NCBI GenBank assembly: GCA_025830695.1
Contig: GCA_025830695.1_4111.2
DNA: 64,000 nucleotides
Direction: 5' to 3' (one strand)
DNA from: a phage
Part shown: positions 7,681-17,638 of the stretch, piece after piece
How the letters are laid out: each line of letters starts with the position of its first letter
Numbering within the stretch: the stretch's first letter is position 1
Made by a program: the position numbers and the translations under genes
Notes under the pieces: generated by a model
Database searches by the model: none
Seen by the model: only the letters and a program-made list of their open reading frames with translations
What the model was told of the DNA's origin: nothing

Positions 7681-7890
7681 TTTTGTTTTTTCCAATAGTT
7701 CCCCTACCGCGTGGGGATAGTTTCCCCGCAGTATCTGGAGTTAGATTTTTCTGAATCTGGAATCATTATCTTATAAACTGGGGGCAATGTCAACGGTCTG
7801 GACGGATATTTTTAAAAATTTTTTCAGTACTGAATTTTGGGCGTAACTATGCACCCGGTGGGCTTGAGTCTTTCTCGACTTGATGGAACT

Positions 7891-7918
7891 ATTATACAGT
7901 ACTGGAAAAATAAAGCAA
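7891..7918 (-). promoter_or_regulatory. minus-strand sigma70-like promoter (TGCTTTA -35 region, TATAAT -10)
   Basis: reverse complement reads TTGCTT-16bp-TATAAT, then conserved leader ATCAAGTCGAGAAAG...CCCACCGGGTGC. Confidence 0.4.
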
Positions 7919-8106
7919 TACCCTGGAAGCAAAAAAGTTTTAATTAATTTGCTTGCTATCCTGGGCCGGACTATGGTACTATATTTCAGTACTGAGAAAG
8001 TGCGTTTACCTGCTAGGGTGCGGGAGTGTATCCTTTTTTTATATCTTGAATTTTGGGCGTAATTCCGCACCCCCTGGGGTATCCGCTTTCTCGCGTCTAT
8101 GTAGTA

Positions 8107-8134
8107 ATTATACGCTTTTTCAGGATCAAGTCAA
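8107..8134 (-). promoter_or_regulatory. minus-strand sigma70-like promoter
   Basis: reverse complement TTGACT-16bp-TATAAT; leader contains CCCCAGGGGGTGC. Confidence 0.4.
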
Positions 8135-8414
8135 TACCTAAAAACAAAATAATTGAAAATAATTTAACGCGTTTAAACGGCCCGTAAAGCCCTGGAATGA
8201 TTGGAATGGTGCAAATGTATAGCTTAGGTGTATTAATGCGTTAGAATGCGTCTGAGGCCGTTTTACGGGGTATCGGGATGATTTGGTGGATTGATTCAGT
8301 ACTGAATAATAGTACTCCTATATAGAAAGATAGTTCCCCTGGATGGTTGCAGTACTGAATGACAGTTCCCCTATATAGAAAGAAAACTATTTTAAAAGTA
8401 CATGTAGAAAGTAC

Positions 8415-8473
8415 TTGCAAACTATGTTTAAAGGCGTATAATGTTTTACATCGAGAGCGGGAACTCTTCCCGC
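8415..8473 (+). promoter_or_regulatory. early promoter + 5-prime hairpin cassette
   Basis: TTGCAA 8415-8420, 16 bp, TATAAT 8437-8442; hairpin GCGGGAA-CTC-TTCCCGC 8457-8473. Confidence 0.7.
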
Positions 8474-8497
8474 TACACTTTAAGAGAGATTAATACG

Positions 8498-8860
8498 ATG
8501 GCGACTCAAATCACTAAAATCATGCTTAACCTGGTAAACTTCCGCGAAGAGATGAAAGGTCTTCCGGCTGAAACTGTAAAAATTCACATTGCAGCTTATC
8601 GGGAACTTATTGCAATGTTACCGCTTAAGCGTGAACAATACGCCGCTACTTTGATGCTTGATTCAATGATCCATGTAATGATCTCAAATGATTTGACGAT
8701 GGTTTATCAGTACATGGGCGAAAATTTCGCGGTGTGTAGTAAACCAGTACCAGGGATGGCAACTACTGAGGAATTGCACGGCTTAAACTTAAAACAAGAT
8801 GCATGGGATAATATGCCTCGTTTCCTGGTATGGGCTGACAGTGGCAAAATTTACAAATAA
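8498..8860 (+). CDS. hypothetical early protein (120 aa)
   Basis: track ORF 8441..8860 begins inside the -10 box; start moved to ATG 8498 (MATQITK). Confidence 0.65.
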   Translation: MATQITKIMLNLVNFREEMKGLPAETVKIHIAAYRELIAMLPLKREQYAATLMLDSMIHVMISNDLTMVYQYMGENFAVCSKPVPGMATTEELHGLNLKQDAWDNMPRFLVWADSGKIYK

Positions 8861-8874
8861 GTTTAATAAAGTAC

Positions 8875-8933
8875 TTGCAAACTATGTTTAATGGCGTATA
8901 ATGTTTTACATCAGGTGGGGAATAGTTCCCCAC
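8875..8933 (+). promoter_or_regulatory. early promoter + 5-prime hairpin cassette
   Basis: TTGCAA 8875-8880, TATAAT 8897-8902, hairpin GTGGGGAA-TAG-TTCCCCAC. Confidence 0.7.
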
Positions 8934-8953
8934 TATATAAGAGGATTAAAAAA

Positions 8954-9193
8954 ATGGCTAAATCAAAAATGTTCTTAGGTCACAAAAACAAAACTCATTG
9001 GAATGTAAGCCTTTGGATTAATAACGATGAATCATTATACCGGTTGGCCCAGGACTTTATTAACGATAGCACTAATCGCAATGATGCGGCCCGTCATATG
9101 ATGTTATTTTTAGAACAGACTGGACAAGATAAAACACCGGACGGATTCAAATATAGCACTACTGCGATCCGTGCGGCGATGGTTGGAATGTAA
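8954..9193 (+). CDS. hypothetical early protein (79 aa), paralog of 10192..10431
   Basis: start moved to ATG 8954 (MAKSKMFLGHKNKTHWNVSLWINN); SD GAGGA. Confidence 0.65.
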   Translation: MAKSKMFLGHKNKTHWNVSLWINNDESLYRLAQDFINDSTNRNDAARHMMLFLEQTGQDKTPDGFKYSTTAIRAAMVGM

Positions 9194-9212
9194 TAGAATT
9201 TATTTAAAGTAC

Positions 9213-9241
9213 TATCATTTTTTGCGATAGTACTTTATAAT
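9213..9241 (+). promoter_or_regulatory. possible promoter (good -10 TATAAT, weak -35)
   Basis: AGTACT...AGTACTTTATAAT 9236-9241. Confidence 0.35.
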
Positions 9242-9278
9242 AGTGTTTTATTCATACACCAACGATAAGGGCAACAGC

Positions 9279-9542
9279 ATGAATATTAAGTATTTTGCGA
9301 CGCGTGAACAAGCTCGGATCGCCGCACGCCAGGACGGGGCAACGTTTAAAGATATGGGCGTACAATCGGAACGTGGTAAACGTTGGGCCATTGTAAAGCG
9401 TAGTACAGCCAGATCATTACAGTACTGGCTATCAGCTTTAAAAAGTCCTGCTAGTGTATCGCGACGAGTGGTAGAAATAAAGCTCGACCGTAAGGGGAAT
9501 CGTGTTACCGTGTACCGTACTAAAAAGATAGCAGTACTATAA
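9279..9542 (+). CDS. hypothetical early protein (87 aa), paralog of 20612..21007
   Basis: start moved to ATG 9279 (MNIKYFATREQARIAARQDG...RKGNRVTVY). Confidence 0.6.
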   Translation: MNIKYFATREQARIAARQDGATFKDMGVQSERGKRWAIVKRSTARSLQYWLSALKSPASVSRRVVEIKLDRKGNRVTVYRTKKIAVL

Positions 9543-9551
9543 AAAAAGTAC

Positions 9552-9610
9552 TTGCAAACTAAGTTTAAAAGCGTATAATACTTTATATCAGGTGGGGAAT
9601 AGTTCCCCAC
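9552..9610 (+). promoter_or_regulatory. early promoter + 5-prime hairpin cassette
   Basis: TTGCAA 9552-9557, TATAAT 9574-9579, hairpin GTGGGGAATAGTTCCCCAC. Confidence 0.7.
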
Positions 9611-9629
9611 TAAAGCAAGGAGTAAAAAA

Positions 9630-9860
9630 ATGACCAATATGTATATGACTGAAGTTAAAACCGTAAAAGATACTACCACTAATAAAACTACTTACTTACA
9701 GCGGATCTGCGGTGTATGGCAACGTATCAGCAAATCAAAGTACTTTAAATTAACATCATATGCCAATCGTTCGGATTCATTCAGTACTGAAATAAAAGGT
9801 AATAAAGTACACCAATACGGCACTTATTATTATTACAGCCTGGACGCGATTGCAGTATAA
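9630..9860 (+). CDS. hypothetical early protein (76 aa)
   Basis: ORF track; SD AAGGAG. Confidence 0.65.
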   Translation: MTNMYMTEVKTVKDTTTNKTTYLQRICGVWQRISKSKYFKLTSYANRSDSFSTEIKGNKVHQYGTYYYYSLDAIAV

Positions 9861-16393: not shown

Positions 16394-16407
16394 TATTAAA
16401 AAATAGT

Positions 16408-16466
16408 TTGACAATAGATTATAGTACTGTATAATGTTTTACATGAAGGGGAGAATAGTTCTCCCC
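16408..16466 (+). promoter_or_regulatory. early promoter + 5-prime hairpin cassette
   Basis: TTGACA 16408-16413, TGTATAAT 16428-16435, hairpin GGGGAGAATAGTTCTCCCC. Confidence 0.7.
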
Positions 16467-16486
16467 ACTAACAGAGAGAAAACAAA

Positions 16487-16699
16487 ATGGCTAATATCCG
16501 GTCGAAATTAAAAAATGCAAAACAAGTTTTATTTTCAGATCATGAATACTTTAATAAAGATATTACAGGAGTTACAAGTATCAAGGAGGTAAAAGAAAAA
16601 ACCGGAGTTTTGTGTGATGTGCGATTAGTTGGAACATTTGGGAATAACGTGCTATATCGCTGTGGTGATTACAATTTTACACTGACTATTATTAACTAA
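16487..16699 (+). CDS. hypothetical protein (70 aa)
   Basis: ORF track. Confidence 0.65.
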   Translation: MANIRSKLKNAKQVLFSDHEYFNKDITGVTSIKEVKEKTGVLCDVRLVGTFGNNVLYRCGDYNFTLTIIN

Positions 16700-16728
16700 A
16701 AAATATTATCACAGTACTATCAAAGCTA

Positions 16729-16757
16729 TTGACACTGATTGATAGTACTGGCATAAT
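16729..16757 (+). promoter_or_regulatory. promoter (TTGACA...GGCATAAT class)
   Basis: TTGACA 16729-16734, 17 bp, CATAAT 16752-16757. Confidence 0.6.
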
Positions 16758-16792
16758 AACTTTTATCAACTACACTACTAAGGAATTAAAAA

Positions 16793-16972
16793 ATGGCTAT
16801 CATCGCAAAAACTGAAATCGTTGGTCTGGATTCTATCATCATGACGTTTGAAGATCAAAAAGGTATGTATGTAGTTTCCTATGGTGATTATGTTCGGGAG
16901 TATGAAACGGTAGACGAAGCCTTTGAAAGCTATATTCGCCAGGTGAATAAAGCATACGACGACTACCGCTAA
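16793..16972 (+). CDS. hypothetical small protein (59 aa)
   Basis: read by eye; SD AAGGAA; MAIIAKTEIVGLDS... Confidence 0.5.
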   Translation: MAIIAKTEIVGLDSIIMTFEDQKGMYVVSYGDYVREYETVDEAFESYIRQVNKAYDDYR

Positions 16973-16999
16973 AATATATTACCAGTACTATTAAAGATA

Positions 17000-17027
17000 T
17001 TGACAACGTTTGATAGTACTGTATAAT
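17000..17027 (+). promoter_or_regulatory. promoter
   Basis: TTGACA 17000-17005, TGTATAAT 17020-17027. Confidence 0.6.
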
Positions 17028-17071
17028 AAGTTTTATAAACAGTAGTTAACTTAACCTAAGAGAGAAATAAA

Positions 17072-17215
17072 ATGATCGCACTGGATTCATTCATCGACGC
17101 AGTACTGGCAAAAACTGGCGAGGATCTGACCGCAGAACAATACGCAATGATCGAACAATGCCAGCAAGACGGTAAATCGGTGAAAGATACTGTTAAGATT
17201 ATCCGCAAGATGTAA
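17072..17215 (+). CDS. hypothetical small protein (47 aa)
   Basis: read by eye; SD AGAGA; MIALDSFIDAVLAKTGEDL... Confidence 0.45.
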   Translation: MIALDSFIDAVLAKTGEDLTAEQYAMIEQCQQDGKSVKDTVKIIRKM

Positions 17216-17236
17216 GATTATAGCCCACTGGTTAAC

Positions 17237-17244
17237 GCTGGTGG
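17237..17244 (+). other. Chi octamer GCTGGTGG inside terminator-like hairpin
   Basis: TAGCCCACTGGTTAACGCTGGTGGGCT. Confidence 0.5.
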
Positions 17245-17320
17245 GCTTTAATTCATTACCCTATACAATGCCAGTACTAAACCGTTTATCTCGTTAGAAT
17301 GCGTTACAGGACGTTTAACA

Positions 17321-17518
17321 ATGATTAGCATGAAATCAGTACAAAAACAAATAGAAACATTATCAAAAATTAAACGTAAACAGTACTCGTTAGAATATAC
17401 AATCAATGGTAACTATCATCTAATGAAAGAGAATAATTTTATAGTCATTGATGAATCATTGCAAATCATTAGTATAGTACTGAAAGCATTAATCAATGAC
17501 AGAAAAAAATTAAAATAA
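17321..17518 (+). CDS. hypothetical protein (65 aa)
   Basis: ORF track. Confidence 0.5.
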   Translation: MISMKSVQKQIETLSKIKRKQYSLEYTINGNYHLMKENNFIVIDESLQIISIVLKALINDRKKLK

Positions 17519-17522
17519 TCTA

Positions 17523-17551
17523 TTGACAATATCATCCAGTACTGGCATAAT
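17523..17551 (+). promoter_or_regulatory. promoter driving conserved non-coding leader (candidate small RNA)
   Basis: TTGACA 17523-17528, 17 bp, CATAAT 17546-17551, then ATCAAGACGAGAACGTCACTAACCCATAGGGTGC. Confidence 0.45.
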
Positions 17552-17638
17552 ACTTACATCAAGACGAGAACGTCACTAACCCATAGGGTGCACAAATGTA
17601 ACTGTATAATATTGATCAAAAAATGATCTGATCAATAC

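Follow-up and report, generated by a model that had tools for sequence, protein, structure and literature searches.

What is made from strong phage promoters that have no gene behind them? The question is raised by a 64,000-nt stretch of phage DNA (GenBank assembly GCA_025830695.1, contig GCA_025830695.1_4111.2; hereafter the window, meaning the whole stretch analyzed), in which a first-pass annotation had reported, between 7850 and 17615, six sigma70-like promoters followed by related sequence and no open reading frame (ORF), and had proposed candidate small RNAs. We find that each of these promoters starts a copy of one element, an early-promoter regulatory cassette carrying a previously undescribed RNA motif, and the element is very probably a real, selected, structured RNA family. 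Region 7700-12100 is 97% identical to Escherichia phage PBECO4, and the window is that of an Asteriusvirus-type jumbo coliphage. The same region is matched by 163 phage records, nearly all ~350 kb jumbo myoviruses of the genus Asteriusvirus (PBECO4, 121Q, G17, and others), and the annotated neighbors of the elements are 'hypothetical protein' throughout.

The six promoters lie where they had been placed, at 9891-9919(+), 10063-10035(-), 11683-11655(-), 17523-17551(+), 7918-7891(-), and 8134-8107(-), plus-strand promoters having been labeled by the start of the -35 box and minus-strand promoters by the end of the -10 box, and a related block does follow each one. The sequence CCCANNGGGTGC occurs 10 times in the window versus 0.02 times expected from shuffles, 10 being reached by none of 100 shuffles. 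All 10 copies lie between 7.8 and 24.9 kb, each 21-28 nt downstream of a -10 box; allowing two mismatches adds a single, unrelated site, and a covariance model (R1) run with filters off returns the 10 and, besides them, only a partial one. With each copy named after the position of the leading C in its core, the list is 7862(-), 8078(-), 9945(+), 10013(-), 11626(-), 15895(+), 17580(+), 19587(+), 22587(+), and 24849(+), with 8010(+) as the degenerate copy. The first list was therefore sound in its six loci and incomplete in its extent, having missed 15895(+) inside its range, 19587(+), 22587(+), and 24849(+) beyond it, and the degenerate sequence at 8014-8033(+).

All 10 window copies are preceded by a sigma70-type promoter with one to three mismatches in 12 to TTGACA/TATAAT. 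Among 84 distinct hits in the window and related phages, 81 have such a promoter (at most three mismatches) with the -10 box ending 6-8 nt before model position 1, and exactly 6 nt before it in 57, so the element begins at the predicted +1. These promoters are a distinct class of host sigma70 early promoters, with a 17-bp spacer in 61 of 81 and a TGn extended -10 in 50 of 81, unlike the ordinary gene promoters of the region, which have TTGCAA or TTGACA, a 16-bp spacer, and TATAAT, then a GGGGAA...UUCCCC hairpin and a ribosome-binding site. The start 'ATCAAGACGA' is not specific to the six loci, as ordinary gene promoters such as 12511(+) and 13977(+) share it. In four plus-strand copies the -35 box sits inside the terminator hairpin of the upstream gene (15833-15860, 19530-19557, ~22525-22552, and 24792-24819), an arrangement not seen in the other six. 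Such composite terminator-promoters consist of a hairpin such as AAAGGGATTGAC-UCCG-GTCAGTCCCTTT, with -35 TTGAC in its 5' arm, and then TGCTATTAT; the design also occurs in the structural-gene region of 121Q (L053, 232-258 and 412-440), which shows it to be general in these genomes.

Two exact-pattern scans of IMG/VR supplied related loci, and the covariance model gave 95 hits, 83 of them distinct, from 23 sources including RaK2, GAP32, CBB, and fHe-Yen9. Phages of Escherichia, Klebsiella, Cronobacter, Pectobacterium, and Yersinia carry the element, the named ones being RaK2, GAP32, 121Q, Pectobacterium phage CBB, and Yersinia phage fHe-Yen9-04 (Eneladusvirus); a further carrier contig has Klebsiella phage fENko-Kae01 and Salmonella phage Munch as relatives. 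Each genome holds at least 10 copies, clustered in the early region or terminal repeat. In CBB they lie inside the terminal 'redundant repeat', and the fHe-Yen9-04 record has its first pair ~300 nt in. Where unrelated contigs matched the pattern, promoter and downstream conservation were both lacking, and such matches were accordingly taken as chance.

Other searches were negative. The exact sequence CCCAYAGGGTGCNNNNNTGTATCTAT had no match in 185,579 bacterial and archaeal species genomes, and Rfam 15 at gathering thresholds gave no hit over the whole window; relaxing to E values up to 10 over 7000-25500 gave six weak hits, none on an element. ARAGORN found no tRNA or tmRNA gene in the window, and in the literature, searched by phage names, 'promoter', and literal motif strings, the element is nowhere described. 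The idea that it mimics E. coli tmRNA or RNase P RNA was rejected, as R1 gave at most 12 bits in partial matches, with the rnpB locus confirmed by annotation. At the MG1655 coordinates taken for ssrA, R1 gave at most 4 bits; no ssrA feature is annotated there, so the test for tmRNA was the weaker one. A mimic of type I-F or I-E repeats of clustered regularly interspaced short palindromic repeat (CRISPR) systems, a lead only, was set aside: the loop is like that of I-F, but two stem pairs are flipped.

Structure of the transcribed module

With the core numbered C0 C1 C2 A3 Y4 A5 G6 G7 G8 U9 G10 C11, the consensus of 79 distinct promoter-linked copies is CUAR-CCCAYAGGGUGC-RGARRU-S18 Y19 R20 U21 C22 U23-AUW. 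The whole module, of ~48 nt, comprises two to six unpaired nucleotides, a hairpin (P1), a YUAR linker, the invariant CCCAYAGGGUGC, and one of two further helices, P2 or P3. In 56 of 72 copies a P1 hairpin stops 3-6 nt short of the core and has 3 or more base pairs; 53% have 4 or more, versus 13% in shuffles. Covariation analysis, proposed in the first-pass annotation as a check, bears the RNA structure out: P1 has 31 distinct stem sequences of 3-5 bp that still pair, beneath A-rich loops (GAGAAA, GCGAAA, AGAUAA, AGAACAA) of 4-9 nt, mostly 6-7, and P2 and P3 show compensatory changes. Model R1 was built from 17 copies picked for P1 pairing, so the counts above (56 of 72, and 53% versus 13%) are the unbiased P1 figures. 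In the R1 alignment, which is fitted to the model and leans to structure, the inner three P1 pairs are formed in 63/63, 63/63, and 57/63 copies with three to four pair types each. Sixteen short-form copies lack P1 and keep a GAAACAA-like sequence; in the 121Q copy of 9945(+), P1 is swapped for an unrelated hairpin, AUUG-AAACGAA-CAAU, and the core is retained.

P2 pairs R-1 CCC with GGG U9 (97% of cells paired) around a loop of 3 or 4 nt, so that an indel is tolerated. P3 pairs G6-C11 with positions 23-18 (GGGUGC with GYRYCU, that is S-Y-R-Y-C-U) in a G·U-rich helix with an RGARRU loop; 89% of its cells are paired versus 34-64% with a slid partner. Only A or G stands opposite U9, and only U or C opposite G10, in 76 of 76 copies, and in the ACGCCC variants (7862(-) and 8078(-)) the G·U pairs of P3 become G-C. 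The 5' arm is fixed by the search pattern, so only one-sided changes are visible in the pattern-selected set. Variants recovered by the model add two-sided changes: CCU...AGG (C2:G6 to U:A) in CBB, fHe-Yen9-04, and one metagenomic contig supports P2, and C11:S18 replaced by U:A or G:C in three copies supports P3. One copy has G8 replaced by A, which keeps P3 (A:U) and breaks P2. The two helices are mutually exclusive.

These pairings bear directly on whether the element might instead act as DNA, either as an ACCC-N3-GGGT palindromic site for a dimeric protein (an operator or roadblock) or as a promoter plus G-cluster whose R-loop primes replication, as at T4 oriF and oriG. The P3 G·U pairs are possible only in the sense RNA, having no existence on the other strand or in duplex DNA, and orientation to the promoter is fixed, which together argue against a duplex-DNA site. 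The variable P2 loop and the covariation of P1 as a hairpin point the same way, and more than 10 origins within 18 kb are implausible. The near-palindromic core, the convergent pairs that amount to ~100-bp inverted repeats, the clustering of copies in the terminal repeat and early region, and the A+T-rich sequence downstream of the module would suit a DNA site. DNA-level readings fit worst of those considered, and we regard them as very improbable.

Three further structural or coding candidates were rejected. An outer helix between the 5' end (AUAGA/AGAUA/AGACG) and 3' UCUAU scored 4.42 versus 4.37 ± 0.08 in permutations, and positions 18-20 had no mutual-information partner. Mini-ORFs within P3 (AUG/GUG-UAU-CUA-UAG) have no start codon in the CCGUCU variants and a Shine-Dalgarno spacing of 0-2 nt. 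A CsrA-type or Shine-Dalgarno-type GGA/GGAG occurs in the P3 loop of only about half of the copies and so is not a defining feature.

Downstream contexts and possible functions

The sequence beyond the module is not constant. An intrinsic terminator preceded by an AGUACU/A-rich linker lies 46-52 nt past the core in 19 of 79 copies, 11626(-) included, giving a predicted unit of ~95-105 nt. As first proposed, the 11683(-) transcript would reach the hairpin at 11556-11575 after ~95-100 nt; on the minus strand this hairpin has a weak U tract only (AUGUAUUA), and the U tracts of the corresponding units in relatives are good. Convergent pairs, a layout that recurs in at least five phage lineages, account for about a third of the copies (9945(+)/10013(-) and 8010(+)/8078(-) in the window, and others in CBB, fHe-Yen9-04, GAP32-like, and other contigs). 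The convergence reported for the 9891(+) and 10063(-) promoters was confirmed, with predicted starts near 9926 and 10028, and read-through RNA of this 9945/10013 pair folds as a long hairpin (-38.4 and -28.8 kcal/mol for the two strands). Roughly another third are followed by an ordinary gene promoter, among them all window plus-strand copies except 9945(+), and every gene downstream of the plus-strand copies has its own promoter. Where local coding direction is clear (69 copies), 43 copies are sense and 26 (~38%) antisense to all neighboring genes.

No conserved ORF follows the elements, in agreement with the first-pass annotation; a 33-codon ORF at 11597-11496(-) has no Shine-Dalgarno sequence and is reduced to 4 codons in phage G17. 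A ribosome-binding site and ATG directly after the element are found in no window copy and in only three copies in relatives, where the module serves as the 5' untranslated region (UTR) of a gene for a 178-amino-acid basic protein with a low-complexity N-terminus (MPGQFRSKAGATLAGHSDKWSDENRR...), at L017 12666-13202, L030 5996-5478, and L019 2122-2640. Orthologues in CBB, GAP32, and fHe-Yen9-04 have a different promoter and hairpin leader. As a binding partner this protein was rejected: no Pfam domain was found in it, its homology is to the N-terminal part of the product of 121Q gene 201, a virion structural protein, and nothing links it to the element. Given the variable contexts and the use as a UTR, the conserved unit is the ~48-nt 5'-terminal module, with variable sequence after it.

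We suggest that the module works independently and as an RNA during the opening minutes of infection, and that the sequence 3' of it is interchangeable. Followed by a terminator, it would be a stand-alone small RNA of ~100 nt; in a convergent pair, it would yield two overlapping antisense RNAs; elsewhere it would form the 5' end of a longer transcript. An autonomous RNA is indicated by the copy number, the strong promoters, the early or terminal location, the invariant 12-mer, the antisense fraction, and the terminator-ended copies. The small-RNA proposal of the first-pass annotation survives in part: these are RNA-level elements, with a covarying P1, a sense-only P3, and a start at +1 in 81 of 84, and 19 of 79 copies have a terminator, but they are not uniformly ORF-less genes, as the window plus-strand copies have no terminator and the element is a gene 5' UTR in three relatives.

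With many copies strongly transcribed, the invariant 12-mer, contained in a bistable hairpin of low stability, could be offered to a single conserved partner, putatively a host or phage protein or an RNA; in trans, the module might then serve as decoy, sponge, or guide while the phage takes over the host. We put forward this trans-acting, partner-binding mechanism tentatively, as somewhat short of probable. An RNA-based host-takeover or anti-defense device, or a factor loaded onto the polymerase transcribing the module, is a possibility on the doubtful side. In the takeover version, at least 10 strong promoters on DNA that probably enters first would fill the cell with a small RNA, bistable in its fold, and its 12-mer would capture or reprogram one conserved component of Enterobacterales, candidates being RNA polymerase, an RNase or RNA chaperone, and an RNA-sensing defense protein. 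If either the takeover or the polymerase-loading version is true, the element would be a new phage regulatory RNA class common to all RaK2-like jumbo phages.

Several points weigh against an autonomous, trans-acting RNA. The partner of the core is hypothetical, and sites complementary to it, which the first-pass annotation had suggested seeking in phage mRNAs, were not in excess in window mRNAs (13 hits, minus-strand copies included, versus 11.6 expected). Alternation between P2 and P3 is seen more typically in leaders that act in cis than in small RNAs that act in trans, and both helices are weak (P2 ~-3.9 kcal/mol; P3 mean -2.3, best -5.1). The core is too invariant for classical covariation, leaving the support for P3 mostly one-sided, and common descent, probably with gene conversion as well, ties the copies together, so that cell counts overstate independent events. 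The gene for the 178-amino-acid protein has the element as its direct 5' UTR in three relatives; copy 17580(+) is missing from the close relative G17, which makes single copies dispensable. Transcript data for these phages were not found in the literature searched, and promoter activity and RNA ends are predictions.

It is possible that the element instead acts in cis on the nascent RNA, affecting its own polymerase or transcript as a hairpin pause, a P2/P3 attenuator, or a put-like change in processivity or read-through. Its position at +1 to +48 of every unit would suit such a role, as would the mutually exclusive P2 and P3, whose energies are close in many copies, as in attenuators. The end of P2 lies 10-11 nt before Y19/R20, and G10...U17-S18-Y19-R20 is similar to the elemental pause consensus, a lead only. 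Only in the degenerate copy, where P3 and U7 form a true intrinsic terminator at 8015-8034, does a U tract after P3 fit termination; the family normally has A-U-W at +24 to +26 instead, and a consistent expression platform is absent. Four plus-strand copies restart transcription within an upstream terminator hairpin, and the last copy, 24849(+), lies ahead of a 39-kb tightly packed plus-strand array with few promoters, but the downstream early genes all have their own promoters and no evident need for read-through, and 25-64 kb has only five plus-strand terminator-like sites, of which the one checked (37372) directly precedes a promoter. The gene 5' UTRs of the three relatives are as a cis-acting leader would have them; 38% of copies oppose all local genes, however, and many meet a terminator 50 nt on, with nothing beyond to regulate. 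A cis-acting role is in our view rather unlikely.

The copies could also be mobile cassettes (terminator, early promoter, and stabilizing 5' leader) like the PeSL (promoter-early stem-loop) cassettes of T4-type phages, each a promoter plus terminator stem-loop running up to the Shine-Dalgarno sequence and start codon of a gene (Arbiol et al. 2010, PMC2839356; Comeau et al. 2014, PMC4122927). They would then be kept as homology for shuffling and for a protected 5' end, and ORF-less or inverted copies would be 'empty cassettes' with no RNA function. The region is made of promoter-plus-hairpin cassettes like those of T4-type phages (PMC2839356), with the -35 box inside a terminator hairpin in four element copies. 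Comparison of the window with G17 places the breakpoints at the edges of cassettes, one copy (17519-17839) being itself an indel, and the same gene has this leader in some phages and another promoter and hairpin in others. P1 lies within 2-6 nt of the 5' end, where a hairpin is known to protect E. coli mRNAs. However, a linker or generic 5' hairpin needs no cross-genus invariant 12-mer beside a freely replaced P1, short forms without P1 keep the core, and several lineages have inverted copies that end at terminators of their own. The reading explains the mobility of the copies but not the invariant core, nor a downstream arm limited to bases that pair with the 12-mer, and we consider it unlikely.

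An autonomous RNA module remains the reading that we favor. The early program of RaK2/121Q-type jumbo phages, several of them therapy candidates, is almost uncharted, their early regions being annotated as hypothetical ORFs, and across five or more host genera no other noncoding feature of the early region is as conserved as the element. Should it bind a host factor or modify RNA polymerase, phage host takeover would gain an RNA-based mechanism. If it is merely a cassette leader, it would still be a second promoter/leader class worth annotating and a marker of the early region or terminal repeat.

Individual copies and the early region

The leftmost copy (7835-7918, minus strand) has -35 TTGCTT at 7918-7913, -10 TATAAT at 7896-7891, and its module at 7882-7835 (44.9 bits); its core, CCCACCGGGTGC at 7862-7851, goes with the ACGCCC variant of the P3 3' arm. 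The second (8051-8134, minus strand) has its -35 at 8134-8129, its -10 at 8112-8107, and a module at 8098-8051 (26.1 bits) with core CCCAGGGGGTGC and a 4-nt P2 loop. Facing it is the degenerate partial copy (8014-8041, plus strand; 15.5 bits at model positions 25-44), in which CCC is gone (CTGCTAGGGTGC) and P3 is lengthened to AGGGUGCG/UGUAUCCU, making with U7 the intrinsic terminator for rightward transcription. The third copy (9891-9972, plus strand) has the promoter TTGACT-17-TGgCATAAT at 9891-9919 and a module at 9926-9972 (50.3 bits) with P1 GGC-AGAUAA-GCC, and is convergent with the fourth (9986-10063, minus strand), a short form without P1 (promoter 10063-10035, module ~10028-9986, core 10013-10002, 21.4 bits); their predicted transcripts overlap by ~100 nt. 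The fifth (11556-11683, minus strand) has its promoter at 11683-11655 and its module at 11646-11599 (36.6 bits), then the AGUACU/A-rich linker and the two-way terminator hairpin at 11575-11556, for a predicted RNA of ~95-100 nt.

The remaining copies are on the plus strand. In the sixth (15833-15922), hairpin 15833-15860 holds the -35 (TTGACT at 15840), followed by -10 TATTAT at 15863-15868 and the module at 15875-15922 (58.6 bits). The seventh (17523-17607) has its promoter at 17523-17551 and its module at 17560-17607 (32.2 bits), where the P3 3' arm is of a GUAACU type; this copy, 17580(+), is within the segment absent from G17, 17519-17839. The eighth (19530-19614), a short form, has its -35 in terminator hairpin 19530-19557, its module at 19572-19614 (34.6 bits), and a Chi site at 19618. 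The ninth (22532-22614) has its promoter at 22532-22560, with the -35 within hairpin AAAGGGATTGACTCCGGTCAGTCCCTTT, and its module at 22567-22614 (64 bits). The tenth (24792-24876), again a short form, has its -35 in terminator hairpin 24792-24819 and its module at 24834-24876 (40.3 bits), and is the last before the long, tightly packed plus-strand gene array that runs from 25 to 64 kb.

Every ORF of 100 amino acids or more between ~3 kb and 64 kb is on the plus strand, and dense strong sigma70-type promoters occur only at ~7-25 kb, which identifies this as the early region, with many tiny genes that each have their own promoter. Ordinary early genes there share a stereotyped cassette of AAAGTACTTGCAA, a 16-bp spacer, TATAAT, a 5' hairpin (G/C)GGGGAA-NNN-UUCCCC(G/C), a ribosome-binding site, and ATG (8415-8470, 8875-8935, 9552-9610, 10108-10175, 11251-11310, and many more), resembling T4-type PeSL cassettes. 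Strong sigma70-type promoters with neither a directly downstream ORF nor a CCCAYAGGGUGC module lie at 7134-7161(+), 7793-7765(-), 12511-12538(+), and 17639-17666(+); that at 12511 has a ~120-nt leader ahead of an ATG at 12662. The gene at 12647-13144 is flanked by two identical terminators (AGCCCACCTTAAACAGTGGGCT plus a T run) at 12431-12452 and 13166-13187. At ~35000-61500 there is an unbroken run of plus-strand ORFs of ~150-200 amino acids each, often overlapping by a few bases, with very few promoters or terminators, which may be a paralogous gene array.

Several related genome records begin within ~1 kb of 7487-7680, so this position may be close to a genome end. Direct repeats GAYGGATTTTGGRCGTAG at 7487 and 7513 resemble, on the minus strand, the ACGCCCAAAAU 3' arm of copies 7862(-) and 8078(-) and may be decayed module remnants, judging by this resemblance; GACGGCTAAACGGCTAGAT repeats follow the pair at ~7581 and ~7621. 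In the whole window, AGTACT occurs 257 times versus ~21 expected from base composition, most densely at 0-28 kb, and CAGTACTG 59 times versus 0.6 expected. These sites lie in promoter spacers (giving the TG of the extended -10), after RNA modules, and in two-copy hairpins such as 7291-7324, and the repeat may be a protein-binding or modification site. The E. coli Chi sequence GCTGGTGG occurs nine times on the plus strand (7358, 13274, 17237, 18699, 19618, 21693, 23108, 24685, and 24907) and twice on the minus strand (7346 and 13212) versus 0.2 expected per strand, all within the 7-25 kb early region. Several Chi sites are directly beside RNA modules, and in relatives Chi occurs in the promoter spacers of some element copies.

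Comparison with known systems

The put RNA of phage HK022 is a cis-only antitermination RNA present twice per genome, upstream of the operons that it serves. The element and put share a location in a phage early transcript, a promoter-proximal pair of adjacent small hairpins, and possible action without an ORF; compared by description only, the element differs in having at least 10 copies, 38% of them antisense and many lying at once before a terminator. The lambda nut site consists of boxA and a boxB hairpin with a 5-nt GNRA-like loop. Like nut, the element places a small hairpin with a purine-rich loop near an early promoter and beside a conserved linear segment. Measured against the nut consensus, however, P1 loops are mostly 6-7 nt, P1 is optional, the order of hairpin and linear segment is reversed, and the column profile has no boxA-like segment; no N-like protein was identified.

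Bistable leaders such as attenuators and small riboswitches also have two exclusive helices sharing one strand at the 5' end of a transcript. The element differs from them in having no consistent terminator or ribosome-binding-site platform, no conserved downstream gene, and at least 10 copies per genome. PA5oct is a RaK2-related jumbo phage in which RNA-seq showed two ORF-less RNAs of 236-451 nt, ncRNA001 and ncRNA002, to be highly transcribed throughout infection (PMC7318152). These loci are similar to the element in being ORF-less and within a long terminal repeat or early region. Homology was rejected, there being no GGGTGC core and no score for the covariance model in the ncRNA001 locus. 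The features of a small-RNA gene (own promoter, no ORF, own terminator, and a length of 50-300 nt) are predicted for 19 of 79 copies, including 11626(-), and not for the window plus-strand copies.

PeSL and the element are alike in being small cassettes that are repeated within the plastic early region of large T4-related phages and that have a strong sigma70-type promoter and A+T-rich upstream sequence; part of the element copies also have a G/C stem-loop able to overlap the -35 box and terminate transcription, or an indel between close relatives, as PeSL does. In the window, a promoter with upstream A/T runs is present in 10 of 10 copies and a terminator stem-loop at the promoter in four of 10; one copy (17519-17839) is an indel relative to G17, the other breakpoints being at ordinary gene cassettes. 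The definition of PeSL includes no conserved transcribed motif, whereas what defines the element is a transcribed module of ~48 nt that contains an invariant 12-mer, has helices that covary or are alternatives, and is often gene-less and often antisense.

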